A stretch of DNA of 64,000 bases, taken from the NCBI GenBank assembly GCA_051531975.1, contig JAOPTT010000003.1:192001-256000 (forward strand), in the 5' to 3' direction. How positions within the stretch are numbered: the stretch's first letter is position 1; the number at the start of each line of letters is the position of its first letter. Under the pieces are notes generated by a model. It worked only from the letters and a program-made list of their open reading frames with translations. It was not told where the DNA came from and did not search any database. This DNA is from Spirochaetaceae bacterium (lineage in GTDB: Bacteria; Spirochaetota; Spirochaetia; DSM-2461). Shown piece by piece: positions 2,779-56,500 of this stretch. The position numbers were made by a program, and so were the translations under genes.

Positions 2779-3285
2779 TTAAAGCGCAGATTTAATTGTA
2801 TCTATAGAGATCACAAGTGTTAATGGATTATCTTCCAATGCTATAAAGCCATATCTTAGATAAAAATCTTTAGCTTTCTCATTCAATGCATCTACAATAA
2901 TAAATTTTATATCAACATCTATAGAAATTCTAATAGCTCTAATAAATGAATCCCTTAATAAATAAGCACCAATATTTTTCCCATGGTATTTCTCATCCAC
3001 AGCCAATTTTCCAATTCTCATGGCTGGAACCGGATACTTAGGTAAACCTTTTTTCATTTCATCTGGTAATTCTTTAAAATATACTTGAGCCATACTTACT
3101 GTATAATAACCTACCAAAATATCAATATTATCTTTTAGAATAGCAACAAAAGTTTTACCAATATTCTTTTTATCATTTGGGATAGAGAACTGACTGAGGT
3201 ATTTATTTAATTCATTGATACCACAATTAAAATCTTTAAGCTTAAGTTTTTTTGATACAGGTACAATTTCTATATTTAGTGCCAT
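2779..3285 (-). CDS. GNAT acetyltransferase toxin (AtaT/TacT-like) of a type II TA pair
   Basis: Motifs FNCG..LNKYL, GYYT, IGKLAVD..HGKNIG, VDALNEKAKDFY..YGF; lies immediately downstream of a DUF1778 gene. Confidence 0.9.
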   Translation of the reverse strand: MALNIEIVPVSKKLKLKDFNCGINELNKYLSQFSIPNDKKNIGKTFVAILKDNIDILVGYYTVSMAQVYFKELPDEMKKGLPKYPVPAMRIGKLAVDEKYHGKNIGAYLLRDSFIRAIRISIDVDIKFIIVDALNEKAKDFYLRYGFIALEDNPLTLVISIDTIKSAL

Positions 3286-3287
3286 TA

Positions 3288-3545
3288 TTACAGTTCTAGC
3301 TTAAATAATTTTTTAAGATTTTCATTTGGAGCAGGAGGATTAGTTATTAAAGAATAAAAGACATCTCTATCTTTATCAGCTAAATGAAGAGATTCAATTT
3401 CTTCAATATCTTTCTTAGCAGAATCAAGTGTTTTATTCAAAATATATGATGATAATGTTTGACCAGTTATCATTGCAGCTTTTTCAATTAATTGTTTATT
3501 ATTAATATCTGTCCTGAATTCTATTCTTGTAGTTTTAGTAGTCAT
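3288..3545 (-). CDS. DUF1778 (RHH) antitoxin, AtaR/TacA-like
   Basis: 85 aa with RIEFR...KQLIEKAA..GQTLSSYI and C-terminal NPPAPNENL; 2 bp before the toxin start. Confidence 0.9.
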   Translation of the reverse strand: MTTKTTRIEFRTDINNKQLIEKAAMITGQTLSSYILNKTLDSAKKDIEEIESLHLADKDRDVFYSLITNPPAPNENLKKLFKLEL

Positions 3546-3574
3546 AATAACCTCTTAATTATATTATATGACCA

Positions 3575-3591
3575 TGTACGGCATTTGTACA
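3575..3591. promoter_or_regulatory. Putative autoregulatory operator of the GNAT/DUF1778 TA operon
   Basis: Inverted repeat TGTAC-N7-GTACA about 30 bp upstream of the antitoxin start; RHH antitoxins typically autorepress. Confidence 0.45.
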
Positions 3592-3627
3592 CACATCAAA
3601 CAGTGTTTTGAATAAAACTAATATATT

Positions 3628-3655
3628 TAATACTGACAGGTTTATGTCAGTATTA
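3628..3655. promoter_or_regulatory. Putative WYL (YafY-family) regulator binding site
   Basis: Perfect inverted repeat TAATACTGACA-ggttta-TGTCAGTATTA, 18 bp upstream of the hydrolase-WYL operon. Confidence 0.7.
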
Positions 3656-3673
3656 GCTCTATAAGATACGCTT

Positions 3674-4615
3674 ATGAGTTATATAGAATTTAGAAAAGTA
3701 GACAAGAAAGTAGATGAGTTGGTTGATAGTGGTATGTATAAAGAGGCTATAGCATTATTAGAAATTGGGTTTGAAAAATGTCCTGAATATAAAATTGATA
3801 TATATAATTTTATTGCCGACTGCTATGATTTATTAGGAGATAATGAAAAGTTATATTCAATGCTTTTAGAAGGTACAGAGAGAGGTTATTATTTACCACT
3901 GCAATCTTCTATTTGGGATAAGGCAAAAAAGTTTGAGGGGTTTTCTGAAATTGAAAAGAAAAACGAAGTAATAAAAAAGAGATATATAAAAGAGTGTAAA
4001 TTAAAATATGAGATTTTAACTCCAAAAGGTTATTCAACAGAAAAAGAGTATCCACTGTTTATAGCACTACACGGTGATGGTTTTTTGTGTAATATTGATA
4101 CCTTTAAACAGCAATGGGAACCAGAACATATGCTTAATGAAGGTTTTATAGTTATGTATATTCAATCTTCTATCCCCTATTGTTATAATGGTTTCTGTTG
4201 GAATAAAGATATAAAACAATCTACAAAAGAGATAATGGAATGTTATAGGGTTGTCACAACTGAGTATTCGGTAAATATAAACTCGGTTTTATTAGGTGGT
4301 TTCTCAGGTGGTGCTATGGCTTCACTTCGTTATTTGATGAATGATATATTTCCAATAAAAGGTATAATAGGACTTTCTCCATCAAGAATTCCTGAAACAA
4401 CAGAAGAGAATATTAAAAATATATCATCTAAAGATGTAAAGATAGTAATCATGGAAGGGGAGTTATCTGGGAAGCAGGAATATCAAGAAGAGTTAATATC
4501 TGTCTTCAATAAATATAATATTAAAAACAGATATATAAAAATACCTGGTGTATCACATCAGATTCCTGATGATTTTCCTGAACTAAATGATATGATAAAA
4601 TACATTATGAGTTAA
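3674..4615 (+). CDS. Alpha/beta hydrolase (esterase-like) with an N-terminal TPR-like helical domain
   Basis: YPLFIALHG, nucleophile elbow GFSGG and C-terminal GVSH; helical N-terminus. Confidence 0.75.
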   Translation: MSYIEFRKVDKKVDELVDSGMYKEAIALLEIGFEKCPEYKIDIYNFIADCYDLLGDNEKLYSMLLEGTERGYYLPLQSSIWDKAKKFEGFSEIEKKNEVIKKRYIKECKLKYEILTPKGYSTEKEYPLFIALHGDGFLCNIDTFKQQWEPEHMLNEGFIVMYIQSSIPYCYNGFCWNKDIKQSTKEIMECYRVVTTEYSVNINSVLLGGFSGGAMASLRYLMNDIFPIKGIIGLSPSRIPETTEENIKNISSKDVKIVIMEGELSGKQEYQEELISVFNKYNIKNRYIKIPGVSHQIPDDFPELNDMIKYIMS

Positions 4616-4628
4616 TTATAGGAAAACA

Positions 4629-5600
4629 ATGAAAAAAATTGAAAGGTTATTAACCATAGTTTTAGCTTTAAAGAATTATGGGAAAATGACTGCAAAAGAT
4701 CTATCAAACTTAATTGAAGTTAATATAAGAACTATCTACAGGGACATGGATGCTATTTCACAAATGGACATACCACTAATAGCATCACCTGGTAGTGCTG
4801 GAGGATATGAAATAATGGAAAGTTATTTCATACCTTCAATCTCCCTAACTAAAGATGAAATATTAGCCCTTCTAATTTCAAAAAAGCTAATTGATACTGT
4901 AGAAATCCCAGGTTTCGGTTCATCAATTACATCATCGTTCTTAAAGATTCAAAATCTTGTTAATAACGATGATATGAAAGATCATAAAAAAATATTAGAG
5001 AGAATTGATTTTAATATTATTGAGCAGAAACCTAAAAAAACTGACTTTTTCCACCTTATAAAAGAGAGCTTTTTACTGAAAAAAACATTATTAATAAATT
5101 ATTATTCACCTAAAAAAATGATTAGTGAAACAAGGGAGATAATACCCTATGTTCTTCATTTTGATGATGGATGTTGGTACCTTATTTCAAAGTGTAAAAA
5201 CAGAGATTCAGAAAGGACTTTTAGACTTGATAGAATTCTAAATATTGAATTAACAGATAATGACTATGTTATCCCAGAAGATTTTGATATCAATAAATTT
5301 AACTATGTTGATTCATTTAAGAAGGATGCTGATAGTCCTGATGGGGTGGATATTATATTAAAGTTAACAAAACCAAGGTATGAAATAGATAAAAACAAGC
5401 TTTTATTTCAGTACCGTAAGGTAGTAGAAAAAGATGATCACTATCTTATATACACCAAATCAACCTACCCTAACGATTACCTTTTTTATGCCCTTAAGAA
5501 TTACAGGAATTCTGAGATAATTAGTCCTGATAATTTAAGGGACAAATTGAAAGAGAAATTAACTGAAAGGTTTAATGTTACCATGGAGAAATACTCATAA
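4629..5600 (+). CDS. YafY-family HTH-WYL transcriptional regulator
   Basis: N-terminal wHTH (VNIRTIYRDMDAI...GGY) and WYL domain (REIIPY...WYL...RTFRLDRI). Confidence 0.92.
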   Translation: MKKIERLLTIVLALKNYGKMTAKDLSNLIEVNIRTIYRDMDAISQMDIPLIASPGSAGGYEIMESYFIPSISLTKDEILALLISKKLIDTVEIPGFGSSITSSFLKIQNLVNNDDMKDHKKILERIDFNIIEQKPKKTDFFHLIKESFLLKKTLLINYYSPKKMISETREIIPYVLHFDDGCWYLISKCKNRDSERTFRLDRILNIELTDNDYVIPEDFDINKFNYVDSFKKDADSPDGVDIILKLTKPRYEIDKNKLLFQYRKVVEKDDHYLIYTKSTYPNDYLFYALKNYRNSEIISPDNLRDKLKEKLTERFNVTMEKYS

Positions 5601-5630
5601 TAAGTGACCTTCGACTTTTTTGTAATAATA

Positions 5631-5716
5631 TTTACCCCGAAGGGTTGGCGGAGTCTTTGCATTTTATATGTATAGATTGTGACAATAACTTTTCTTTTCC
5701 AATTTCTTAGTTATCT
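5631..5716 (-). repeat. Truncated attC-like palindrome (copy C)
   Basis: 5631-5702 matches 12929-13000 at 65/72 nt. It keeps the gene-proximal box (GTTATCT at 5710-5716 on +) but lacks the distal arm; 24 bp downstream of the brnA stop. Confidence 0.7.
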
Positions 5717-5740
5717 GAGAATCAGATTGTTTTATTCTTT

Positions 5741-5989
5741 TTAGGCATGATGTGCTTCAACATAGCTTCTTAATATATTATTTATTTTAGATTGATAACC
5801 TCGACCATCTGATTTGAAATAGTCAATTATATCCTGATCTAATCTTATGCTTATTGCTTTTTTTTGCTTAGGGTATACAGGCTTTACATTATCCCAAAAG
5901 GTTTTATCTAATTCAGGTATATCTGAATAATCAATATCATCATTTTTTATTGCTTTTATTTCTTGTATTCTTTTTTTATCGATATTCAT
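5741..5989 (-). CDS. brnA: BrnA antitoxin
   Basis: IDYSDIPEL...ISIRLDQDIIDYFK..GRGYQSKINNILR. Start set to MNIDKK (5989), downstream of a GAGGAG RBS. Confidence 0.9.
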   Translation of the reverse strand: MNIDKKRIQEIKAIKNDDIDYSDIPELDKTFWDNVKPVYPKQKKAISIRLDQDIIDYFKSDGRGYQSKINNILRSYVEAHHA

Positions 5990-6248
5990 AATATTTACTC
6001 CTCTCTCGATCATTAGCTTTTCTTGCAGATATAATCCTTATATTGCCAAATCTGTCGGTATGAACAAGAACTAAAACAATATCTTTGCTAATTTCTCCAA
6101 TTGTTATTTCTCTGGTTTCTCCATAATTTTTTCTTTCATCTACCCAAGTCAAACAATCACTTCGAAAAACTTCTACAGCTTCCTCAAAATAAATACCATG
6201 TTTCTCATAATTAGATTGGTTTTTATTTTCATCCCATTCAAACTTCAT
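5976..6248 (-). CDS. brnT: BrnT ribonuclease toxin
   Basis: MKFEWDENKNQSNYEKHGIYFEEA...YGETR...RIISARKA, the canonical BrnT signature; overlaps the brnA start. Confidence 0.93.
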   Translation of the reverse strand: MKFEWDENKNQSNYEKHGIYFEEAVEVFRSDCLTWVDERKNYGETREITIGEISKDIVLVLVHTDRFGNIRIISARKANDRERSKYYEYR

Positions 6249-6255
6249 ACTTAAT

Positions 6256-6274
6256 TATATACATTTTGTATATA
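6256..6274. promoter_or_regulatory. Putative BrnA operator
   Basis: Inverted repeat TATATACA-ttt-TGTATATA 7 bp upstream of the brnT start. Confidence 0.5.
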
Positions 6275-6545
6275 CAATTCAATCTTGAAAAACTCCATTC
6301 CACATTTTTAATAAGAATCTGAATATTAAAAGGGCACATTTGTATTGGTTTACCGTAGGTTTAATACTTTTTAGGAATAATTTAGAGTGCTTCCATATCA
6401 TTAAAAAGAAAAGTCTTGATTTAAGGATCACTTTACAAGTTACTACATCTAAACTATATTTTAGAATGGATAATCTTTTAATTCGGTAAAACTACCAGAG
6501 TTAATACTACGCTGGGTAGTTAACTGATAAATTATAGGATAGATA

Positions 6546-7847
6546 ATGCAACGAAAACTTAATAGTGAAACTCTAAACTCATATCTATACCTAATTAAGT
6601 GGGTTGCAATCTCTCTAATATCTGGAATTGTAGGAGTTGCAACGCTTCAAACATTCACAATACTTTCAAATATAATTACAACAAATATTTCTAATGTTAA
6701 TATACACATAATAGTATGGCCCATATCCGGAGCAATAATTACAGGACTATTAATATACAGATTTGAAATTGGCGCTGCTGGAGAAGGGGTTCCATCCTAT
6801 ATTAAAGGTGTAAAAGATGATGGAGGATATCTCTCTTTCCGTGTCTCATTTTTTAAATTCTTCGCAGCACTATTCACACTTTCAACATATGGAAATGGTG
6901 GAATTGTAGGGCCTTTAGGGCGAGTTTCAGCAGGTATTTCTAATCAAATATTGGGATTAATAAAACCACTTACAAAGAGAATAAATCAAGATGACATTAG
7001 GATTGCTGCAGTTTGTGGGATGTCTGCAATTATGGGTGCAATTTTTCATTCATCAATTGGAGCAGGAGTTTTTGCTGTTGAGATTATACAGAGAAAAAGT
7101 ATTAATTATCGTGATCTATTCCCTTCGATACTTGCAAGTTCAACGGCTGTTTATATCTCAAAGCTACTCGGTTTTGAAAGTTTTTACGGTATAGAAACTG
7201 TCAATACTTTTATGGAATTTGATAAAACAGGGTGGCTTATTATTTTTATAATCGTTGTCGGCTTTATGGGTGGACTGTACAATCAGATATACGGGAAAAT
7301 AACTCATATAATCAGACGTGGGGAAGGAAATATTTTACCAAAACTGATCCTGGGATCACTTGTCGCATTTATAATTTCTTATGCAGTTAACCCTAATCTA
7401 ATTGGTACAAGTAAGCCAATTTTCACAGCATTATACACAGGAGATATTACTGTCATTACAGGCAGACTCACGTCTTTGGACAATGTAGGCTTTTCAATTT
7501 TAATAATTATTATCGCAAAAATCTTAAGTAACTGTATCACCGTTGGAAGTGGTATGAGTGCTGGTTTTACTGGTCCTTCAGCATTAACAGGAATGCTTCT
7601 TGGTGTAGCAGCTACAACATTTTTAGATATTGAAATTGGATCTGCAACCTACTTCGCTTTTATGGCAGCTGGTTTTTCAGGAATGCTTTCAAGTAGTATG
7701 AATGTTCCTCTTGCAGCGGCTATTTTATCTATTGAGATATTTGGTTTACAGTACTCATTTCCAGCTGCAGTATCTGCGATTATTGGTTTTCAGATAATGC
7801 GAGGAAGTACTATTTACGACTTTGCTCTTGGTACTGCAAAAAAGTAA
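6546..7847 (+). CDS. CLC-family anion channel/transporter with atypical filter motifs
   Basis: Polytopic membrane protein with CLC-like motifs GEGVP, GIVGP, FAVEI, SAGFTGP, NVPLAAAILSIE and C-terminal TIY. Confidence 0.85.
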   Translation: MQRKLNSETLNSYLYLIKWVAISLISGIVGVATLQTFTILSNIITTNISNVNIHIIVWPISGAIITGLLIYRFEIGAAGEGVPSYIKGVKDDGGYLSFRVSFFKFFAALFTLSTYGNGGIVGPLGRVSAGISNQILGLIKPLTKRINQDDIRIAAVCGMSAIMGAIFHSSIGAGVFAVEIIQRKSINYRDLFPSILASSTAVYISKLLGFESFYGIETVNTFMEFDKTGWLIIFIIVVGFMGGLYNQIYGKITHIIRRGEGNILPKLILGSLVAFIISYAVNPNLIGTSKPIFTALYTGDITVITGRLTSLDNVGFSILIIIIAKILSNCITVGSGMSAGFTGPSALTGMLLGVAATTFLDIEIGSATYFAFMAAGFSGMLSSSMNVPLAAAILSIEIFGLQYSFPAAVSAIIGFQIMRGSTIYDFALGTAKK

Positions 7848-7901
7848 ATGAGTTATACTTTAACTAAACCGATATAATATATCGTAATAAGGAGTGTTTT
7901 T

Positions 7902-8525
7902 ATGAAAATAATAGTTTTTGGTGCAACAGGTAAAACTGGAATGGATGTAGTCACACAAGCTCTTGAGCAAAATCATTTAGTTACTGCTTTTATACGAAAT
8001 CCAGATAGAATGAGTATTAAACATGATAATTTAACTTTAATAACTGGAGATGCTTTAAATCTTGAAAACGTATCCCAAGGGGTTATAGGTCAAGATGCAG
8101 TTATCTGTACATTAGGATCTGGTAAAAATTTAAAACAAACAAAAATCAGATCTAAGGGTACTGCAAATATCATAGATGCTATGAAACAACATAAATTAAA
8201 GCGTTTAATAGTCATGACAGCTATGGGTGTTGGTGAAAGCTGGAATGATCTTTCACTGATTAATAAGTTCTTTTTTGCAGTTTTGATGAAAAGTATACGA
8301 CAGGATCACGAATTACAGGAAACTTATGTAAAAGAGAGCAAATTAGATTGGACAATTATTAGACCTAGTGGATTAACCGATTCAGTACCTACTGGAATGT
8401 ATAAAGTTGGTGAAAGAATAAAGGCAAAAACTTCTCAAATTTCTAGAGCTGATGTTGCTGGTTTGATTCTAAATGAGATAAATAAGAATGATAACTTACA
8501 TAAGGCAATTACAATAACCAACTAA
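7902..8525 (+). CDS. NAD(P)H-binding atypical SDR (flavin reductase / biliverdin reductase B-like)
   Basis: FGATGKTG Rossmann motif, LDWTIIRP, ISRADVA. Confidence 0.85.
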   Translation: MKIIVFGATGKTGMDVVTQALEQNHLVTAFIRNPDRMSIKHDNLTLITGDALNLENVSQGVIGQDAVICTLGSGKNLKQTKIRSKGTANIIDAMKQHKLKRLIVMTAMGVGESWNDLSLINKFFFAVLMKSIRQDHELQETYVKESKLDWTIIRPSGLTDSVPTGMYKVGERIKAKTSQISRADVAGLILNEINKNDNLHKAITITN

Positions 8526-8613
8526 TAAGATAGTTATTGATCTATCATTAGAGTGGATAAGTAATATTCCAAAAGCTCGTCTACCACTGGGGTTTATTTC
8601 TTATTATATTCTT

Positions 8614-9186
8614 TTAGATCACTTTATATCTCTTTTCATTCCATATTTTTTGTAATGTTTCATTATCCCATACCTGTGCTTCTATATAGAATTCATAATT
8701 TAAGACTTTCTTTTGAATAATTAATTCTTCAAGCTCATTATATAAATATACTTTTGGGTTATTAGTTCTTCTTCCACCAATAATATGACCTTCTTCATCA
8801 TATTCTAATTCATACATACTATCTGGATAAGTAAATGAAATCGTTGATATATCTATTTCATTAATTTCTATACGATATTCAATTCCATTTTTTTGTATAT
8901 CGATCCTTATATCTGTCTCACCTTCTTTGGGTTCTCCTAATATCATGTACACAGGAACAGTACTTTGTGGTGTCCCACCTTTATCTTTCAGGCTTTTATA
9001 TATCCAATGTTCTATTTCCCTTCTATGCAATAAATATTCATCGTCAGCATAAAAGTCTCCAATATTATTTCTCTTACAATGTTTTTTTTTAATACTATTT
9101 GCTTCTTCAATTGATATCTCATTGAGAGAAACAAATGGATATTCACCTATTGGAGCAATTCTAGTTAAATAATTCGGTATAATCAT
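8614..9186 (-). CDS. Hypothetical protein
   Basis: 190-aa ORF starting 2 bp after the serine hydrolase stop; motifs PVYMILG, SFTYPDSM, YIEAQVW. Confidence 0.7.
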   Translation of the reverse strand: MIIPNYLTRIAPIGEYPFVSLNEISIEEANSIKKKHCKRNNIGDFYADDEYLLHRREIEHWIYKSLKDKGGTPQSTVPVYMILGEPKEGETDIRIDIQKNGIEYRIEINEIDISTISFTYPDSMYELEYDEEGHIIGGRRTNNPKVYLYNELEELIIQKKVLNYEFYIEAQVWDNETLQKIWNEKRYKVI

Positions 9187-9188
9187 TT

Positions 9189-10205
9189 CTAATAATTTCC
9201 TAATAATATTTCACCAATTTCATAGACTACTCGTTTCATACCAGAGAAATTCGATAAAGATATAATGGTAATATCTTTTTGTGGGAATCGGAGCATCTCT
9301 GATCGATATCCTGCGGCAGCACCATCATGGTTTATGGTCTTAAATCCAGAGAAATCATCAACGAACAACCCATAACCATAATTTATTTTATCACCATTAT
9401 TAAGGTTGCTCTTTTTCTGTAGTTCCCCGTGGAGTTTACAGTTTATTAGCGTACTATTCGATTGAAAAAAGCAATTATCCCATTTAGCTAAATCATGAAC
9501 GTTTGTCAAAAGACCTGTATCACCTACAATATTGAAAATGTAAGGAAAATTCTCATGTTTACCATCTTTAATAGTACTATAACTGAGTGCACGATTTGGT
9601 ATTATTTGTTTATGATCATTATAAAATGTAGTATTATTCATTCCTAATGGATTAAAAATTTTAGTATTCATATATTCTGGAAAAGATACTTTTGCCACAA
9701 TCTCAATTATTTGAGCTAATAAGAAATAGTTTGAATTTGAATATGTGAACTTTTCTCCAGGTTCGTCTTCTAGTTTACTTAAGACAATTAGTTTCATAAT
9801 ATCTGCATCCTGATACATATTTGATTCAGACATACTTTCAGACTCCATCAAATCCATATAATCCTGAATTCCTGAGGTATGGTTTAATAAGTTTTTTAAT
9901 TTATTTTGCCGAGTTAATTGAGGGAAATCTGGGAAATATTTATGTAGACTATCATCTAGTTCTAATAATCCATCATTTTGTAATAGTAAAATACCATAAG
10001 CTACAAATTGCTTGGAAATAGATGCGATATCAAAAATAGTATCACAAGTAATTTTTGTACCACGTTCTAAATCTGCTAATCCATAAGCATATTCGAAAAT
10101 TAAATTCCCCTTGTGGATAATACCAATCTGAGATCCAGGATGATTCTTTATATTGAACTCAGAAAATAATTCTTTTATCTTATGAGAAACTTCTAATAGT
10201 TCCAA
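9189..10205 (-). CDS. Serine hydrolase, beta-lactamase class C / D-aminopeptidase-like
   Basis: SxxK (ASISKQF), LLNHTSG, YSNSNY and HDG motifs. Confidence 0.88.
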   Translation of the reverse strand: MELLEVSHKIKELFSEFNIKNHPGSQIGIIHKGNLIFEYAYGLADLERGTKITCDTIFDIASISKQFVAYGILLLQNDGLLELDDSLHKYFPDFPQLTRQNKLKNLLNHTSGIQDYMDLMESESMSESNMYQDADIMKLIVLSKLEDEPGEKFTYSNSNYFLLAQIIEIVAKVSFPEYMNTKIFNPLGMNNTTFYNDHKQIIPNRALSYSTIKDGKHENFPYIFNIVGDTGLLTNVHDLAKWDNCFFQSNSTLINCKLHGELQKKSNLNNGDKINYGYGLFVDDFSGFKTINHDGAAAGYRSEMLRFPQKDITIISLSNFSGMKRVVYEIGEILLGNY

Positions 10206-10626
10206 TTGTAACTCCTTTAAATTTCAATTAAATAAATTTTGATATTTTTTAGAATTTACTCGTACTTTGCTTTTAGATATCACTAGTATAATATATTTCT
10301 AAATATTATTTTTATATACTACTCAAGTAGTATATATTCAAAATGCAAGAGTGATATAATTCTCCTGATAATCGTAGATTAATTTTTTATGACTAGCTTA
10401 TTATTTAATACTTATGAATTTTATTAAAATTATTAATTATACTTGAATGTGCTTCTGTTGTTTATTTTATTACTATTTCTTTTCTGGTCAGACAAATACT
10501 AATTAATTGTAATATTTGTCAATTAAACCATTAATCCTCATTGTTTTATACTAACCCCTATTTTACCCATTTATGATTATACGAAACACATAGTATAGAA
10601 AATAATCAACTGATACCCTAAAGTGG

Positions 10627-10748
10627 ATTTAACACCTGTATGAGCTGCCGGCTTGTGCCTGAAACGAAGTGGAAGGATTGGCGCATATCTTGTATTTTTC
10701 ATGCACGATATGTACCCCAAAACGGTCTGATCCATACTTGGGTTAAAT
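10627..10748 (-). repeat. attC-like imperfect palindrome (copy B, 122 bp)
   Basis: Bounded by ATTTAAC and GTTAAAT (extends to GGATTTAAC/GTTAAATCC), with inner GTATG/CATAC boxes and a TTGGCG-plus-hairpin core shared with copy A; 48 bp downstream of the C39-like gene stop. Confidence 0.7.
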
Positions 10749-10796
10749 CCCAATCATTGACGTTTAACCTCAAATTTCACAACGATTATTATCTTT

Positions 10797-11429
10797 TTAC
10801 CTTGGATTAATTAATATCCCTCTTCCTGCAAAATATTTTTCAAATAGATTGAAATCAACTTTAAAGTTCTTCTGACTAGAAACTGAATTTCCTGAGGGAT
10901 TATTTATATAAAAACATTTTTCAGATGTATCTACTCCTGTGATAACAACAAGATGTCCACCTTTTTTTCCTGAATATAATATATTAGGTTTTCTAATTAA
11001 ATAATGTACTGAAACTATAAAAATATTTCCTTTTAAAGTTTCAGTTGAGATTTCATTTATAGATAATGGAGAGACAGATAGAGATTCTAATTCAAATCTT
11101 TCTTTTAAGTATTTTGTAAAAGGAACATAAAATAACCCATCTACATCATCATACTGAATTTTATATCCTCCATACAAAGTACATTCTTTTGCTAACTCTA
11201 TTAATGGAGGTGATTTAATTTTACAATAATCTAAAATCATTTTTAAACAAGCCATACCACAAATATTTTTTGCCCAAAAATCATATTCATCTGGTGTTAT
11301 TGCCCCTGAAGATTTCCATAATGGATCATCAACTGCTTTTATATTTCCATTAATTATATCACCGACTAAGTTACTTGAAATCCATTGAGAATAATATGGG
11401 AATTCTTGATATAATTTTCTTTGTTTCAA
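10797..11429 (-). CDS. C39-like (papain-fold) cysteine peptidase
   Basis: PYYSQ, CGMACLKM, GGHLVVITG and YINNP motifs; TTG start. Confidence 0.75.
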   Translation of the reverse strand: MKQRKLYQEFPYYSQWISSNLVGDIINGNIKAVDDPLWKSSGAITPDEYDFWAKNICGMACLKMILDYCKIKSPPLIELAKECTLYGGYKIQYDDVDGLFYVPFTKYLKERFELESLSVSPLSINEISTETLKGNIFIVSVHYLIRKPNILYSGKKGGHLVVITGVDTSEKCFYINNPSGNSVSSQKNFKVDFNLFEKYFAGRGILINPR

Positions 11430-11590
11430 TTTTATTCCTTACTTTAAGATCATTTTTAAGGTACTATTTTTACCTAATAATTAAATGATTTTGAACGAGA
11501 CATCAATATTTCCTAAATCTTATAGCATATAAAAGTTTAGGTCACGTATAAAAATCTGGTATAGATTAGACTTCCGCACCTTTGATGAAC

Positions 11591-12896
11591 TGTATGATAC
11601 ATCGCGGACACTTTTCTAACAGCATCGCTTACAGTTTTAACTCATTATTATACTTCATTATATCATATACTTTGAGGTCTTTCATATCTGCATATCCTAG
11701 GAAGAATTGCCTAAAATAGATCTCATATATTCTATTTCCAAGCTCGTTAAAACCCAATTCTTTGCCAGCTAGAGCTGATGTGATAAACATCCATTCTGCC
11801 TTTCCTATTCTAATGGCACCATTATTAGTTACCCTCCTTACAGTATATTCTTTTGGATACATCCATGGTTCTATTTTTCCAGGATATTTTTTATCTGATC
11901 TAATATTAACAGCAGTCGGAGTTCTCATTCCAAGAGCTTCATGTGGTCTCAAGTCATTATATTCTCTAATAAAATGATTAAGTTTTACTTGTTGTGCCTG
12001 AAGGTTTTTACCAGGAGGTCTAGTTGCTTCACCCTTCAAATCTCGGTGCATTCTTTCGTGCCTCCCATTTTGCTGTGGACTTGCAGGATCTGAGAATACA
12101 GGTTTAATTCCTAGCTCCATAAACCAAACTCCTAATTTAGATAATCGACCTAAAGATCTTACGTGTGCAAAGGGAGATCCATTGTCTGTATGAATCTGTT
12201 CGGGTAATCCATAATGTCTAAAAACTTTGATAAATTCAGCCTTAGAGCCCTTTGTATTAGGGTTTAGCATACCTTTAGCACTAAAGACATAACGACTGTA
12301 GGAGTCTACGATAGTGAGCGGGTGACAGTATATTTTGTTACCCATTCTAAACTTACCTTTGAAATCAGCACTCCAAACCTCATTACATTTCTTGGGATCA
12401 AATATTGGTTTCTTAGGTTCTGTCCTAGTTCTAATTTTTCTAGATTTAACCAATCCATTTCTTTTTAATATAAGGCTAACTGTAGATTCTTTTGGGAGTG
12501 TGCAATTTGGAAATTCAGCTTCTAATAGAACTAATAACTTTCGTGGTCCCCAGCTTTTATGTTTCCCTCTTAATTCAATTATTTTCTTTACAAAGAGTTC
12601 TGGTGTTTTATTTGGCATATGTATTGGAGTCTTATCTTTTTCTTTTAATCCTGGGAAACCAAACTCTTTATACCTATCAATAAACTTGTATGCGGTGGAT
12701 CTACTAATATCAAACATTTTAGTTAAATTAGTGACTGTATATTTCCCAGATTTCCATAGTAAAATAAATTCTTCTTTTTGTTCCATGACTGACATCTCCT
12801 TCCAAGACACGGCTAACTCCTTTTAAGGGTATTTCCATGTCTTAAACTGTAAGCGATGTCCTTAGAAAAGTGTCCGTGATGTTGTTAGGCCGTACC
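11591..12896 (-). mobile_element. IS481-family insertion sequence (ends approximate)
   Basis: About 39-bp imperfect inverted repeats (11599-11637 and 12844-12882) flank the transposase; possible imperfect target duplication TGAAC/TGAAT. Confidence 0.8.
11629..12810 (-). CDS. IS481-family DDE transposase
   Basis: MSWKE start, HTH, WGPRKL, WSADFKG, TDNGSPF, PQQNGRHERMHR, YNDLRPHEALGM. Confidence 0.93.
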   Translation of the reverse strand: MSWKEMSVMEQKEEFILLWKSGKYTVTNLTKMFDISRSTAYKFIDRYKEFGFPGLKEKDKTPIHMPNKTPELFVKKIIELRGKHKSWGPRKLLVLLEAEFPNCTLPKESTVSLILKRNGLVKSRKIRTRTEPKKPIFDPKKCNEVWSADFKGKFRMGNKIYCHPLTIVDSYSRYVFSAKGMLNPNTKGSKAEFIKVFRHYGLPEQIHTDNGSPFAHVRSLGRLSKLGVWFMELGIKPVFSDPASPQQNGRHERMHRDLKGEATRPPGKNLQAQQVKLNHFIREYNDLRPHEALGMRTPTAVNIRSDKKYPGKIEPWMYPKEYTVRRVTNNGAIRIGKAEWMFITSALAGKELGFNELGNRIYEIYFRQFFLGYADMKDLKVYDIMKYNNELKL

Positions 12897-12903
12897 TGAA
12901 TCC

Positions 12904-13013
12904 ATATAACGTCCTGTTGAGAAGAAAGTTTGTCCCGTAGGGTTGGCGGAGTCTTTGCATTTTTTATGCATAGACTGTGACAATAACTTTGCTTTTCCAA
13001 CAGTTTGTTAAAT
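12904..13013 (-). repeat. attC-like imperfect palindrome (copy A, 110 bp)
   Basis: On the minus strand it reads ATTTAAC-N5-GTTGGAAA...TTCTCAAC-N5-GTTATAT, with paired arms CTGTTG/CAACAG, AAAGTT/AACTTT and TGTC/GACA; 28 bp downstream of the 13042 stop. Confidence 0.75.
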
Positions 13014-13041
13014 AGTGAATAAGTTAAAAGGCATAATAATT

Positions 13042-13905
13042 TTATCGTTGTTTAATAGGCACATTAATATCACCTACTAATACTAATGAATTATAATCTT
13101 CAGAATTAGGAAAATTTAATTGAATATTATAGATTCCATATTCAGGTTCATCATCTACTATAACTACTTTAATATAAGCATTAAATTCTTTATTAGGTTT
13201 TGAAATAGTTGTTATTTTTATAGGAATATAAAAATCAAATCCTTTTATTCCACTTTTGATATCAATATATACAAGAAAACTATTATCTAGGATTTCCATT
13301 TCTTTAGCTAAACTAAAATTCATGGTTGTTTTCAATTTTGTATCTTCAATATCAATATCATCTAATGCGTTTGGAGAATATAAATCGATTAAATCTTCGA
13401 AATATCTATTATCAATTATATCTTTTATTTTTTTTATTAATTCATTTTTTTCTTTATCTTTAAATTTCGATGAAATAAGTTCATTTTTTACTGAGACATT
13501 ATTTAATTCTTCTTTATTGAAAGCGAATCTACTTCCTGAAACAGTATTGTTAATTGGATCATCTATATGCATCAAAACAATACCAATCAGTGAATCATAA
13601 ATGTGAAACTGATTACTGTAATTATTATATTTTAATGCATTACTCAAATATCCATTTTTAATTGCATATTTTGCGACTTCCATAGCAAAATCTTTACTTT
13701 TTCCTTCCATTGTAGGTTTTGACTCTACAATGAGTTGAATGGTATATAAAGCATTTCCAGTAATTACAGTTTTCAAAATTTGATAATTTTGATTATTTAT
13801 CTTCCAATTTTCTTGTGGCGTTATTTGAATTTCTGAATATTCTGAAACTTGTCCATATAAACTAAATGTTAAAGTAAATAAAATAATTATTATTTTTTCT
13901 TTCAT
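13042..13905 (-). CDS. Hypothetical exported protein
   Basis: 287-aa AT-rich ORF with a signal-peptide-like N-terminus (MKEKIIIILFTLTFSLYG). Confidence 0.7.
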   Translation of the reverse strand: MKEKIIIILFTLTFSLYGQVSEYSEIQITPQENWKINNQNYQILKTVITGNALYTIQLIVESKPTMEGKSKDFAMEVAKYAIKNGYLSNALKYNNYSNQFHIYDSLIGIVLMHIDDPINNTVSGSRFAFNKEELNNVSVKNELISSKFKDKEKNELIKKIKDIIDNRYFEDLIDLYSPNALDDIDIEDTKLKTTMNFSLAKEMEILDNSFLVYIDIKSGIKGFDFYIPIKITTISKPNKEFNAYIKVVIVDDEPEYGIYNIQLNFPNSEDYNSLVLVGDINVPIKQR

Positions 13906-14342
13906 ATATTTTCCTTGTTCATAGACATTTTATAGCCTAATGAACTTACAGTATACTAATAAATTTTTATCTATTTAACATATTACATCACTTGTTTTCT
14001 CTATATTTCACATCCTAAACAGCATAGTTTATCGATATACGTATTATTTATCTAGTTATATGTACTGCTCTAATTAGTTTTACAATCTATGTTAGATTTA
14101 TATCCATTTACATCGTTTCCATATAAACAGAAATAAGGGATATACAATGAATAATGGAACGTTATTATATTAGTTATCCTTTAAATGTTTATACGAAGTA
14201 GTCCTACTAATACCAACAGTACTAGCAAGAACACTTTTCTAATCACCTAATGATAACAGAGCATTTATTTGTGTACTTTACTGTGTTCATGCCTATCCCC
14301 ACGTTGTTCCCATGTGGAATGAGTTCTTTATCAATATTAAAC

Positions 14343-15551
14343 TTAAGGCCGTCCCATACTACCGTCAGCTCTTCTTGCAAGGGTCCATTTTGTTGGCTTT
14401 ACTTCTGCTGGGTATTTATTTGCTAGTTTTTCATTGAAGTTTATTCCCCAGCCTGGTTTATTATTGGGAATAACCATATTTCCATTTATTTCAGGTATTC
14501 CTTCAAATATCTCATGTTCTAGTTCTGATCTAAAAGCCCATTCCTGGATACCGAAGTTGTTTTTATTTATATCCATGTGAACAGATGCTGTTAGTCCTAT
14601 TGGTGTTAGATCACCAGGGCCGTGCCAGGCTGTTCTTATTCCCTTATCTGCACATATATCTGCAAGTTTTAGACATGGAGTTACTCCTCCTATATCTGAT
14701 GGATGTATACGGAGGAAGTCAAATAAGCGTTCGTCTATCATGGATTTTATTGTATTGGGATGGCTGAATAGTTCTCCCATAGCTAGGGGTATAGCACTTT
14801 GTTCTCTAACTCTTCTAAACCACTCCCAGTCTTCGGGGGCAAAAAGATCTTCTAGAAAAAAGAGTCTGTAGGGTTCTAAAGCTTTTGCAAGCCAGACACC
14901 GTCTGTTGGCATTAGTCTTTCATGGACATCGTAGAGGAATTCTACTGATGGCCCAACTTTTGATCGTAGGTATTCGAACATTTCAGGAATTAGATAGAGT
15001 TTTTCCTTTTCATCGAAATAGGCTGCTTCTCCAAATAATTTTTTACCGGGGATTTTATTTTCATCGAGTAGTCCCTGATAACCTCCTAATTGGCATCGGA
15101 TATGGGTAAAGCCTCGCTCTCTGAACTCTTCTACTCTGTCTAGAAGTTCCTCTTTACATTTACCGTCTGCATGAACGTAGATAGTAGCACCAACTCTGCT
15201 TTTACCACCCCATAAATCGTAACAGGGCATGTTGGCTACTTTACCCTTAATATCCCAGAGAGCCATATCAATACCACTCATGGCGTTATTCATAACTGGC
15301 CCGTTTCTCCAGTAGGCATTAACATTAATACTGTTCCAGATATCAGTGATATTTGATGGATCCTTTCCTATAACAAATGGTTTAAGGTAGTCCTCAAGTA
15401 TAGTAATGACAGCTGTATACCGCCATGAAAAAGTAGCACAGCCGATACCAAATATTTCTGGATCATTTGTTAATATTTTTACAACAACTAAAGGAGTTCC
15501 TGCTGGAGATGTTGCCCAAACTTTCACATCTGTTATAGTTAAATTATTCAT
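14343..15551 (-). CDS. Enolase-superfamily acid-sugar dehydratase, ManD/RspA subgroup
   Basis: YWRNGP, SGIDMALWDIKGK, DVHER, FFLED, AMGE, WHGPGD, FGIQEW. Confidence 0.88.
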   Translation of the reverse strand: MNNLTITDVKVWATSPAGTPLVVVKILTNDPEIFGIGCATFSWRYTAVITILEDYLKPFVIGKDPSNITDIWNSINVNAYWRNGPVMNNAMSGIDMALWDIKGKVANMPCYDLWGGKSRVGATIYVHADGKCKEELLDRVEEFRERGFTHIRCQLGGYQGLLDENKIPGKKLFGEAAYFDEKEKLYLIPEMFEYLRSKVGPSVEFLYDVHERLMPTDGVWLAKALEPYRLFFLEDLFAPEDWEWFRRVREQSAIPLAMGELFSHPNTIKSMIDERLFDFLRIHPSDIGGVTPCLKLADICADKGIRTAWHGPGDLTPIGLTASVHMDINKNNFGIQEWAFRSELEHEIFEGIPEINGNMVIPNNKPGWGINFNEKLANKYPAEVKPTKWTLARRADGSMGRP

Positions 15552-43665: not shown

Positions 43666-46600
43666 TTAAATCTTAGAACTTATACTCTCCAGGACTTCTA
43701 TAGCTTCTTTCATCTTATATTTTGATAAAAGCTTTTTACAACTGTTAAAATCAAAAATAAAGTTCTGGTCTAACTGGAACTCTTCTAGCTGCTCTAATAT
43801 AGAAATTGCAGGTTTAGGTTTCCTACTTTTTAATGAATCAACAGCCTCTTTAAGTTTGATTTTCAGATCTTCGTCTGTAATTTGTTTATCTCTAATGATT
43901 GAATTATCCTGGTCTAATTCCAAGGACTTAAGTTCTTTGATAAGATCTAATAAAGTATTCCCAAACTCTTCTAAAACTTTTTTATCATCTATTTCTTCTT
44001 TTATAGTACTTTCTACTACTTCTGCCTTTTTTTGTAATTCTGAAGCACCAATATTACCGGCTACACCTTTTACTGTATGGGCTAATCTAACTGCAAGTTC
44101 AAAGTTTTCTACTTTCACTGCATCTTCTATCTCAGATAATATATTAGAATATTCCTCTCTAAACTTTTTAATAATATTTAAGTATAACTTTTTATTGCCA
44201 TTAACATTTTTTAAACCAAGATTTGTATTAATACCTTTTATAGTAGGAATATTCAGTTCAGATTCTACAGAGTTATTATCTTGTATAAATGATTCTGGAA
44301 GTTCTCTATCTCCAGGTTTGATCCATGTTGTTAAAGCCTGCCACAAGTCGTGGGGTATTATTGGTTTAGTGACATAATCATTCATCCCTACAGCACTAAC
44401 CTGATTTCGTACACCTGTCATAGCATCTGCAGTCATAGCGATTATAGGAAGACTATCGATGTCTTTGTTCTCTCTTAGCTTTTTTGTTGCCTCGTATCCA
44501 TCCATGATAGGCATCTGAAGGTCCATTAAAACTAAATCATATGAATGATTATTATCGATTAAATCTACTGCTATCTTCCCGTTTTCTGCAATTTCAATAT
44601 AAAACCCCTCATGTTCAAGAATCTCTTTTGCAACTTGCTGATTTATTTCGTTATCTTCAACTAAAAGTAGTTTAGCACCACGTACTTTATCAAATCCTTG
44701 AGGTTTAACATCTTTATTAATAGCTATTTTCTTAACTGCGATACTTTTGCCAAAGACTTCCATTATCGTATCATATAACATAGATGGACTTACGGGTTTA
44801 ATTAAAAAACCCTGTAGCCCTACATCTGTGGCCTGTCTCATAATCTCTTCTCGGCCATAACCAGTAATCATAATAATTTTTGGAACTTCAATATTTTCTA
44901 ATTCTGATCTAATCTTTCTAGATGTTTCAATACCATTCATTCCAGGCATCTGATAATCCATTAAAACAAGGTCGTAATCCCTATTTTTAGAAGCTTTAGA
45001 CTGAACTATATTTCTGATAGCCATATCCCCGGAGGCTACAGATGTAACATTAAAAGAGAAGTCTTCTAAATATGAAGTAAGTACATCTCTTGCACTTTCG
45101 TTGTCATCAACAATTAAGATATTCAGACCTAAAAGATCTTCCGGAGTTATAATTTTTTCTCTGATTTCACCTTTAGCAATTTTAAATGGGATTGTAAAAT
45201 AGAAGTTTGATCCCTCACCATATGTACTCTCGACACCTACTTCTCCACCCATTAATTCAGCGAGTTTTTTACTTATTGAGAGTCCTAGACCAGTACCTCC
45301 GTATTTTCTTGTAGTAGATGTATCTGCTTGGGCAAAGGACTGAAACAGTTTATTAATCTGTTCCTGGGTTAACCCAATACCTGTATCTTTAACTTCAAAC
45401 TTTAGAGTAACAGATTTATCGTTTCTTTCAACAACATTAGTAACAACAACAATCTCACCTTTTTCTGTAAATTTTACAGCATTATTAGTTAAGTTTAATA
45501 AAATCTGTCCTAACCGAAGTGGATCACCAATTAAATTATTGGGAATATTTATATCCTGATCAAAAACTAATTCTAAGTTCTTATCTCTAACCTTATCCCC
45601 TATCATTCCAGATAAGGTACCAAGAACCTCGTTAAATACAAATTGAGTATTTTCTATTTCTAATTTCCCAGCTTCAATCTTAGAGAAATCTAATATATCG
45701 TTTATAATACCTAATAAGTTTTTAGCTGAACTGCCAATTTTGTCTACATAATCCAACTGCTTATGGTTTAAATCTGTTTTTCCTAACAAACTATCTAACC
45801 CTATTATAGCATTCATCGGTGTTCTAATCTCATGGGACATATTTGCTAAAAAGTCACTTTTTGCTTTATTAGCATCATCAGCTATATCCTTAGCACTGGT
45901 TAATTCATTTTGAATCTTTTTTAAATCTGTAATATCTATTACCCAACCTAAAATTGCCTTTTCTTCCATATAATCTATGCTAAAAAATGTTACTAAGACA
46001 TCTAAAATATTTTTATTGACATCATATATCTGTGTTTCAAGGTTTCTAATTACTCCATATTCTTTAATGCTTACAAGCATCTGATTCCTATCTTCAATAT
46101 TTACATAAGTACTAAGAATTGATTCTCCAATATTAATCCCTGTCATTTCAACTATTTTAGGGTTAACATTTTTAACTATGCCATCTACGGCAACAACAAC
46201 TCCAACAGGGCTTGAATCAAAAATAGATTGTAATTGTTCCCTTTGTTTTGATAATGCTTCTTCGTTTACTTTACGTTCAGTTATATCCTGATTGATTCCC
46301 ATAACCATTTTAGGGCTTCCATCATCGTTTCTTTCAACGATCTTACCGGCACCATATAACCATACATATTCATCATCTTTTGGGTGTCGATATCTAAATT
46401 CAGAAACATACATTTCTGTTTTACCCTCTAAATGATCTGTTAATGCTGTAAATGCATTGTTCAAATCCTCTGGGTGTAACCTCGATTTCCAAACTTCAGA
46501 AACATCTTCTTCTTCAGGGTCAAAGCCAAAAAGCTCTAAGTACATCTCGGAGCCTGTAGTTTTATCATCTGCTAAAGTCCAATTCCATGTAGCAATTCTA

Positions 46601-53551: not shown

Positions 53552-56500
53552 GAGTGTATTTAACCAGTGCATCTTTGAAGTTATACTTATTTATTAAAGC
53601 ACCTAATTCTACAATCTCATTGGCTAGACCAGATGGTAAAATATAGTTATTTATTGTCTGTAAAGTTATTTTGAGGTCTTTTGGTTTTCTCTTATCAAGA
53701 TTAGGTTTTAATTCCAATATTAATTTTTTCAACACACCAGATTCTATTTCTAACTTAATGTTCTCTTTAGTTTTTATTAATGAGCTTAAGTTAGCCTTGC
53801 CTATATTAGTAATTAAGGATGATAAAACTATGTCGAAATCTTCAAGGTCAGAACTACTTATTTGCTCTGAATTTAAAATCTCTTCTAAAACTAGAGACTT
53901 TTGCTGTACTAGTTTTGCTCCAAGATTCCCTGCAACACCCTTAATAGTATGGATAATTCTTTTGACTGTTTCAAAGTCACTGTTATTAATTAGTTCTTTA
54001 ATTTCTGTAATAGAATTCAGATATTCAGTTTTAAATTTAAGTAATAGATCTATATACAATAATTTATTACCACCTAAATGTCCTAAACCATCTTGAATAT
54101 CTAGACCTTCTATATCCGGTATGTTTACTGTTTTTTTATCTCTGTTCTCTTTTATATTCTGGGATGTTTTTGGAATCTCTCGTTTTCCTGGTTTTATCCA
54201 TAATACAAGGGTTTCCCATAAGTTCTTTGGTATTATTGGTTTTGTAACATAGTCATTCATTCCAACATCTTTAACCTGATCTCTTACCCCTGTCATAGCA
54301 TCTGCTGTCATAGCAACTATTGGTAGGTCATCAAAATCTGGATTTGTCCTTATCTGTCTCGTAGCATCGTAACCATCTAGAATTGGCATCTGTAAATCCA
54401 TTAAAACAAGATCGTATACTGTTTTACCATTAGTTACTATTTCAACACCTTCTTTTCCATCATTTGCAATATCAACAACAAAACCTTCTTGCTCTAATAA
54501 CTCTTTTGCAACTTGTTGATTTATCTCATTATCCTCAACTAATAAAAGCCGTGCTCCACAAATATTCTTGAAACCATCAGGTCTATCTTCATCGGTAGAT
54601 TTAACTAGCTTAACTTGGTTTGAATTTTTACCAAAAACATCCATTATAGTATCAAACAACATAGAAGGGCTTACGGGTTTTAGGAGGAATCCTTGTAGAT
54701 CAGCCATTTCTGCCTGTTGCATAATCTCCTCTCTTGCAACTCCTGTAACCATAACTATTAGTGGGATATGTACATTCTCAAGCTCTTCCCTAATTCTATT
54801 TGAAGTTTCAATTCCATTAAGACCAGGCATTTTATAATCCATTAAAATCAGATCATAATCTATATCTCTACTTGCTTTAGACTGTACTAACTCTCTAATT
54901 GCTAATTCTCCAGAAGAGACAGCTGTAACTTTGAAAGAAAAGTCTTCTAAGTAAGAAGTTAAAACATCCCGAGCGGTTTTGTTGTCATCTACAACTAAAA
55001 CGTTAAAACCTGAAATATCATCTGGTAATACATTTTCTTCAGCTTTACCTTCTTTCCCTATTTCAAATTTTCCTGTAAAAAAGAATGTACTACCTTTTCC
55101 ATATTCACTACGAACTCCAATGCCGCCACCCATTAATTCTGATAGCCTTTTACTAATTGTTAAACCAAGTCCAGTACCTCCGAACTTTCTAGTTATTGAA
55201 CTATCAGCTTGGGCAAAAGAGTTAAAGAGTTTACCTATCTGCTCTTCTGTTAAACCAATACCTGTATCACGAACTTCAAATTTAAGCACAACTTCGACTT
55301 CGTTAATAGATTCAACTTTAACTGAGACTTCAATCTCTCCTTGAGCAGTAAATTTAATTGCATTATTTGTTAAATTTAGAAGTACCTGCCCAAGTCTTAA
55401 TGGGTCTCCCATTAGGAACCTAGGAATATCCTTAGACTGGTTAAATATTAGCTCTAAGTCATGATCTTTTGCTTTGTGCCCAATTATTTCTGAAAGATCG
55501 GTCATAACATCTTTTAAACTAAATGACCTAGATTCCATATCTAGTTTACCAGCTTCAATTTTAGAAAAATCTAAAATATCGTTAATAATTCCTAAAAGGT
55601 TTTTAGATGAGCTACCTATTTTATCAACATAATCCTGTTGCTTAGATGTTAGATCTGTCCTCGACAGAAGATTATCAAGACCAATTATTGCATTCATAGG
55701 AGTTCGTATTTCATGGGACATATTTGCCAAAAAATCACTCTTAGATTTATTAGCATCTTCTGCTCTTAACGTTGCATCTTTTAACTCTATTACAAATGAA
55801 CGAACAAAAAACAGGACAATTATCCCAATAATTAGGGATAGAAGGGAGATAAAAAGTGTAATACTTACAGCTTTATTTATTGCTTGTTCAGCATGTGGTC
55901 CTAGGATATCTTGCTCATTTTTAATTGTTAGTTTTAATTGCTCTATCTCATGGGCGACACTAGGACCAGTTTTATCTAATTTGTTTTTTATAACATCATT
56001 TCTAGAAGTAATTGCCTCGTAGACTAAATTAAAATTACTTCTGTATTTGTTTATAGTGAATTTTAATGATTTAGCAATTTCTAACCGGTTTGGATCTTCT
56101 ATATATGAAAAAAGTTTAGAATAGTTTTCCGACATAATAGAAAATTCTTTAATAACACGGGTATAAGCAACATCTTCATTAGTTACTAAATATCGTGTTG
56201 CATATATTCTAGCAAGTAACAAATTTCTCAATGTCTCACCTGCCCAGTATGTGACATCTTTATCTGAGTCAAGATAAGCACTTTCCATAATTGTGGTTAA
56301 ATCTCTCTCGATCTGAGGACCAATAACATTTAGTACATCATTAACATAATCATTTCTTAACGTTTGATATATTATTACATCATTAAAGTTACTAATGTAA
56401 CCATTTAATTCAACTCTTAAGTGACCAATGATGTTGCTAAGCTCATCATTGGTTGAGCTAATAGAAGCTACTTCGATCATATCTAGGGTTAGTTGTGCTC

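Follow-up and report, generated by a model that had tools for sequence, protein, structure and literature searches.

The stretch of DNA analysed here (the window) comprises 64,000 nucleotides of a Spirochaetaceae bacterium, on contig JAOPTT010000003.1 of assembly GCA_051531975.1, and contains three related elements, A (12904-13013), B (10627-10748) and C (5631-5716), all given for the plus strand. Each of the three stands behind a gene on the minus strand. The gene before A (13042-13905) has a GC content of 23% and encodes a 287-aa protein that matches no Pfam or NCBIfam family, and the gene before B (10797-11429) encodes a 210-aa protein of the Peptidase_C39_2 kind (E 3e-14). C lies behind brnA (5741-6013, minus strand; PF14384, E 6.5e-16), upstream of which is brnT (5976-6248, minus strand; PF04365, E 1.5e-26), and together these genes (5741-6248, minus strand) have the content of a two-gene toxin-antitoxin cassette. 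The gaps from the stop codons are 28 nt for A, 48 nt for B and 24 nt for C, in agreement with a preliminary description of this DNA, which had placed the elements 24-48 bp after minus-strand stops and had named a C39-like peptidase as the gene before B and brnA as the gene before C. The elements are very probably integron attC sites of the long, branched 'Spirochaetes-type' family, with A and B forming a two-site cluster of attC sites lacking integron integrase (CALIN) and C being a truncated site. This kind of site and its family are already known, and it is the present instance that is new.

The three elements form one repeat family. A and C are identical at 65 of 72 positions, a count made earlier and reproduced here, and at 87% over 79 nt. 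The core GGRTTGGCG-N6-TTGYATTTT has three exact matches in the window, all on the plus strand and located in A, B and C, with 0.16 expected and no case of three matches among 100 shuffles. A is structurally intact, with R' ATATAAC at 12904-12910 and R'' GTTAAAT at 13007-13013. B is weakened, and its end boxes ATTTAAC (10627-10633) and GTTAAAT (10742-10748) both follow the consensus inside a perfect 9-bp pairing. C is a dead fragment ending in an R''-like GTTATCT (5710-5716); its branched centre and the arm next to the gene remain, and the whole left R'/L' arm with the AAC cleavage site is gone. The loss of this arm deprives C of its cleavage site and of the ability to fold into the hairpin. 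Hence, where three related palindromes had been described, their coordinates and their membership in one family stand, and C is no palindrome. Ends of the RYYYAAC...GTTRRRY type had been ascribed to A and B alike. Both ends of B and the right end of A conform, and the left box of A fits RYYYAAC at 6/7 positions. The unpaired base that was said to be common to A and B is indeed found in both, 10 nt after AAC, as C on the plus strand and G on the coding strand.

Two covariance models were used for this family. The first, R1, was made from A, B, C and one copy from a Shewanella genome with a hand-drawn structure, and holds no sequence from plasmids or from the large array described below; the second, R2, is broader and was made from 24 copies. 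R1 scored A at 128.8 bits, B at 103.1 bits and C at 78.3 bits, with the left arm of C unmatched, and R2 scored A at 105.6 bits and B at 87.5 bits. With filters off, R2 found A, B and C and nothing else in the window, the next-best matches having E >= 0.019.

According to Nivina et al. (2016), R' (RYYYAAC) of the attC bottom strand pairs with R'' (GTTRRRY) to form the R box, the spacer between R and L boxes is unpaired with usually 5-6 bases per arm, and the arm facing AAC has extrahelical bases around positions 16 and 23/24, which flank a stem of 6 bp. The same source describes the terminal structure as variable and often branched in chromosomal integrons. When the two arms of each copy were folded against each other and positions were numbered from the 3' end of the plus strand, the plus-strand 3' arm of A had two single-base bulges, C16 and G23, at either end of a 6-bp stem. 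B kept the bulge positions 16 and 23, with two of the six pairs between them mismatched. Because the bulges are on the arm opposite AAC, the plus strand is expected to be the bottom strand, and the genes then lie on the top strand as required.

This geometry was also turned into a signature that is independent of the family, requiring R boxes, a spacer, the order bulge, 6 bp, bulge on the 3' arm, and an arm duplex of <= -9 kcal/mol. Over both strands of the window it gave a single match, which is A, and in 30 dinucleotide shuffles it gave a mean of 0.067 matches (two shuffles with one each). It also recovered all three cassette attCs in a class 1 integron on an Aeromonas plasmid.

As a whole, A folds better than shuffled sequence (z = -4.96; 0/200 shuffles equal), and C folds no better than its shuffles (z = -1.0). 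The minus strand of A, corresponding to the transcript of the coding strand, also folds (z = -4.69). With their positions 24-48 nt after stop codons, the elements might accordingly act at the RNA level only, as structured 3' untranslated regions or terminators of the minus-strand genes. However, Rfam gave no match, either for the window at the gathering threshold or for 5400-13300 at E up to 10, a terminator scan gave no terminator-like site at A, B or C, and the bulge asymmetry and the R boxes are accounted for by attC function. An exclusively RNA-level function is thus very improbable, and an added RNA role may exist alongside attC function.

Relatives of the elements in other genomes support the attC reading. 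A pattern search of genome contigs was made with a loose pattern of 18 specified bases, and it returned at least 115 loci, nearly all of them chance matches; the pattern was too loose for exhaustive coverage of the genome collection. R1 was run on the 115 loci listed and on the window, and among these 115 matches two loci, L080 and L010, held full family members.

The more informative of the two is L010 (CAXXEM010000001.1, 184313-204336), from a metagenome-assembled genome (MAG) labelled Oscillospiraceae. R1 found 18 full copies there (E 1e-12 to 1e-4), besides one copy disrupted next to an insertion sequence (IS) and one cut by the locus end. The copies are all on one strand and 572-1186 bp apart, and 17 of the 18 full ones are behind a co-oriented open reading frame (ORF; >=60 aa) whose stop falls within -6 to +95 nt, which is the same arrangement of gene and repeat as in the window. 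The array thus holds at least 19 Spirochaetes-type attCs in 20 kb, is interrupted by IS66 and IS3 elements, and runs off both locus ends. The genes include PIN/Phd and VapBC pairs, GNAT, methyltransferase, isochorismatase, DUFs and defence-like domains, and this content is typical of chromosomal integron arrays. Among all Firmicutes, a single complete integron was reported with IntegronFinder 2.0 (Neron et al. 2022, PMC9024848). L010 is either a rare large array in Firmicutes or part of a mislabelled genome.

The other locus, L080, is from Shewanella phaeophyticola and has one full-length homologue of A (112.9 bits with R1), a singleton within 20 kb. Its ends and junction motifs are the same as those of A, and its stems differ by compensatory changes. 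On the cassette strand, no ORF >=60 aa lies directly upstream of this attC. The attC is situated about 500 bp downstream of an operon (L080:7491-10075) encoding a 304-aa tyrosine recombinase and an IS91-family transposase, and the recombinase scores below the IntI cut-off and is without the IntI insertion. These two genes suggested that the hairpin might mark the end of an IS91 element, a notion dropped given the array and the integron matches. At a third locus, in a Spirochaetota MAG, a fragment was seen: an attC-like 5' half with the CCCGCAGGGTTGGCG motif (L075:9979-10082; 19.8 bits, E 0.011-0.28) ends where an IS begins. That locus is rich in IS (IS256, IS481, IS21 and IS1182-like), encodes a group II intron reverse transcriptase, and has an IS481 transposase 37% identical to that of the window.

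The family also reaches class 1 integrons. Two L010 copies had BLAST matches on 11 and 10 resistance plasmids, respectively, with 70-72% identity over >90% of their length, and two of these plasmids were inspected. On the Aeromonas caviae plasmid NZ_AP019196.1 (L116) the order is intI1, blaOXA-732, aac(6')-Ia + DUF3788, the match, aadA2, qacEdelta1 and sul1; the intI1 gene is upstream and divergent, and we take aac(6')-Ia + DUF3788 to be the aacA1:gcuG cassette. The match follows the DUF3788 gene by 14 nt and is not on the strand of the cassette genes but on the other one, and this orientation is the one predicted from the window. On the Klebsiella plasmid LC621169.1 (L117), the match follows a class 1 integron cassette that encodes a hypothetical protein. 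R1 scored these sites at 54.8 bits (E 3e-12) and 48.2 bits (E 2e-10), respectively, and nothing else in either locus. The attC of aac(6')-Ia + DUF3788 shares with the window copies the covariance family, the branched architecture, the gene orientation and the bulges at 16 and 23. It differs in being part of a complete mobile integron with intI1 and resistance cassettes, whereas the window copies have no integrase nearby and no recognised resistance gene in their cassettes, and BLAST detects no direct similarity between it and A.

Ghaly et al. (2021, PMC8352920, Table 1) assigned the aacA1:gcuG cassette to the 'Spirochaetes-type' attCs. Their covariance model for this type has 52 attCs, 98 positions and a cut-off of 43 bits (PMC8352920, supplement file 4). 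Compared by eye, its top-strand consensus shares with our family the end boxes (cUAAC ... GUUAG), the arm motif GcUUCAACC and the junction motifs UGuCA and GCGCCAA. In contrast to this consensus, the stems of A and B are changed by compensation, and they have C instead of G at extrahelical position 16. Long attCs are also on record in Wu et al. (2013, PMC3607928), of 132 bp in T. succinifaciens and 115 bp in T. brennaborense. The same paper describes an integrase-less remnant of attCs and cassettes in Treponema phagedenis, an earlier example of a spirochaete chromosome whose array lost intI and kept attCs and cassettes. One Treponema attC given there has the R box GTTAGGT, as do L010 copies. 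In the preliminary description, the architecture of the elements had been called that of integron attC sites, and the L010 array, the match to the attC of an intI1 integron, the consensus read by eye and the geometry of A all bear this out.

Across these genomes, the family has changed its stems and preserved its junctions. In a 22-copy alignment, 88.3% of cells were paired, compared with <=46% with slid partners, 24 of 37 pairs showed compensatory change, and 0/500 shuffles reached the observed values. TTGGC was invariant in all 23 intact copies, and a small CC-GNA-GG hairpin and TGACAA were nearly fixed, so that the junction motifs stay constant while stems change by compensation; the copies come from a low-GC genome, a Shewanella, the Oscillospiraceae-labelled MAG and class 1 integrons. 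The bulges are C16/T23 in the Shewanella copy and G16/T23 in the L010 and L116 copies, and attC_aadA2 of L116, folded in this way, likewise gave G16/T23. A 12-nt insertion in the small hairpin of B is also present in L010 and L117 copies.

These data bear on a reading of the elements as REP-like (repetitive extragenic palindromic) or MITE-like (miniature inverted-repeat transposable element) intergenic palindromes unrelated to integrons. Such sequences are likewise short imperfect palindromes in intergenic DNA, only three copies are present in 64 kb, and an IS adjoins one of the elements. Dispersal in either orientation, as such a repeat would show, is nevertheless not what is seen, since all three window copies and all 18 full L010 copies have one orientation relative to the preceding gene. 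In addition, a family member is the attC of a cassette in an intI1 integron, and the extrahelical bases have canonical geometry. We see hardly any room for this explanation, and the orientation of the three window copies, each behind a gene on the opposite strand, in turn supports the identification of the elements as attC sites.

Cassettes A and B are arranged as in an array. The crossover in A is predicted between A12909 and C12910, and cassette B would therefore start at 12909 and extend to 10633, directly adjacent to cassette A. An IS481-family element (11599-12882, minus strand) is inside the 5' part of cassette B, starting 27 nt into it, and without the IS this cassette measures 993 bp. 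The transposase gene of the element is at 11629-12810 (NF033577, E 1.3e-58), its 39-nt inverted repeats (11599-11637 and 12844-12882) are 90% complementary, and no clear target duplication was found in cassette B.

According to Cury et al. (2016, PMC4889954) and Neron et al. (2022, PMC9024848), a CALIN has at least two attCs <4 kb apart on one strand and no integron integrase. When the 4-kb rule is applied to coordinates, A and B form such a cluster, both being on the plus strand and 2156 bp apart, with no intI or intI pseudogene within 10 kb; the associated IS is also frequent for such elements. C is unlike the rule in being truncated and 4.9 kb away (4911 bp from B), and falls outside it. 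In a complete integron, an intI (a tyrosine recombinase gene with the IntI-specific domain) and an attI would stand beside the array, and no intI was found within the 64 kb. A tblastn comparison of the window with IntI1 and with the Xer/IntI-like recombinase of L080 gave a best E of 1.4, with no remnant in 64 kb, and the 437 bp upstream of cassette A contain only an R'-like heptamer, ATTTAAC.

Cury et al. (2016, PMC4889954) listed secondary-site insertion and rearrangement among the origins of CALIN and found recognisable intI pseudogenes near only 15 of 279 of them. Hence, the sites may be true attCs that are not the remains of a decayed local integron: an integrase encoded elsewhere could have placed the cassettes by secondary-site insertion or rearrangement, and the cluster could be active. 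The missing intI remnant and the intact structure of A are in line with such an origin, as is the Shewanella singleton, according to which single cassettes of the family occur outside arrays. The direct, array-like adjacency of A and B speaks against it, and the truncation of C, the degradation of B and the IS in cassette B suggest no recent recombination. Thus, this origin is possible, but we consider it doubtful.

Several results weigh against identifying A, B and C as attC sites in a cassette cluster without integrase. On the structural side, B folds no better than shuffles (z = -1.5), and R' of A is one position off RYYYAAC, which leaves an A-A mismatch in the R box with 6/7 positions paired. 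The extrahelical bases of A are C and G instead of the usual G and T, and all 23 intact copies have an unpaired spacer of only 2-4 nt, compared with the usual 5-6; the spacer of L116, from a class 1 integron, is just as short, and spacer length therefore seems to be a trait of the family. The pair counts above were made on a model-fitted alignment and are biased towards structure. The strict signature fails B, gives no match in L117 and finds only 9 of the 18 copies in L010, and is thus specific, not sensitive. With regard to relatives, neither A nor the Shewanella copy had a BLAST match among plasmids at E <= 1, and the link to plasmid attCs therefore rests on the models and the L010 copies, while the likeness to the model of Ghaly et al. 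was judged by eye from consensus letters only. With regard to context, there is no intI in the 20 kb of L010, and the 4.4 kb from the cassette of C to B have genes on both strands (a CLC channel and an NAD-binding protein on the plus strand, two genes on the minus strand) and no attC by model. Moreover, Pfam found no tyrosine recombinase in the 42 non-overlapping ORFs >=70 aa of the window, so the earlier statement that the window has none was correct.

In accordance with the attC identification, the plus strand of the window would be the bottom strand, which as single-stranded DNA is predicted to fold into an imperfect hairpin with an R box (RYYYAAC/GTTRRRY), a short unpaired spacer and a stem with two extrahelical bases opposite AAC. 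Each site would close a cassette whose gene is on the minus strand, and the genes would have arrived as such cassettes. A and B would then be a two-site cluster without integrase, in which cassette B has been struck by the IS481-family element. Judging from its structure, A could still recombine if an IntI were provided in trans, B is probably impaired, and C is presumably inert. The proposal that the array is decaying fits the truncation of C, the stem mismatches of B and the IS inside cassette B; these three features were observed, and decay is what we infer from them. Read in this way, the locus illustrates three routes of decay, namely IS insertion, stem erosion and truncation.

With these sites, three more cassettes, encoding the 287-aa protein, the C39-like peptidase and BrnTA, join the attC family to which, in class 1 integrons, the sites of clinically relevant aac(6') cassettes belong. 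CALINs of this kind are regarded as reservoirs that can supply mobile integrons with cassettes. The case also indicates that an integrase-less cassette cluster can be correctly spotted by eye. For a specialist this is expected biology and no surprise. The fixed junction motifs amid compensatory stem turnover prompt the idea that the long branched centre has a sequence-specific job beyond serving as integrase substrate. It may be bound by a dedicated clade of integrases or by a host factor, may take part in the formation of new cassettes, or may have an RNA-level function in the 3' untranslated region. Such a job is unlikely in our judgement, as is the related possibility that the source lineage of the window belongs to the reservoir behind the clinical aac(6')-Ia-type cassettes.

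An upstream junction of cassette A was sought on the plus strand, and the heptamer ATTTAAC at 13973-13979, 68 nt upstream of the gene start, is a low-confidence candidate that could be due to chance. A fourth site from this heptamer to GTTAGAT (14091-14097), at 13973-14097, was rejected, as it has no stem between its ends, pairing is confined to the end heptamers (-5.8 kcal/mol), and neither model matches it.

The elements are located in a segment (2779-14342) that has a GC content of 29.7%, versus 34.2% in 14343-64000, where an enolase-superfamily gene is found at 14343, and looks like a variable island beside sugar-utilisation genes. This difference in composition agrees with the attC and cassette reading. 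Its contents are toxin-antitoxin pairs, a WYL regulator, an esterase, the CLC channel, the IS and the cassettes. Besides brnTA, it has a second toxin-antitoxin pair on the minus strand (2779-3545), consisting of a GNAT acetyltransferase toxin-like gene (2779-3285) and a TacA-like antitoxin gene (3288-3545), behind which no attC was found by model. At 9189-10205, a 338-aa protein with a beta-lactamase fold (PF00144, E 9e-56) is encoded, followed by a gene for a 190-aa product with no function assigned. The top NCBIfam match of the 338-aa protein is D-aminopeptidase, far under the cut-off, and the protein is under the cut-off for all class C beta-lactamase families; it is probably a serine hydrolase or peptidase and not a resistance enzyme. 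A short hairpin, ACTACCAG ... CTGGGTAGT, was seen at 6480-6545, close to the CLC channel gene on its upstream side, for which Rfam gave no fluoride or other riboswitch. Outside this segment, two hybrid histidine-kinase genes (44289-45906 and 54164-55787) are paralogous over about 1.6 kb, with 71-73% identity.

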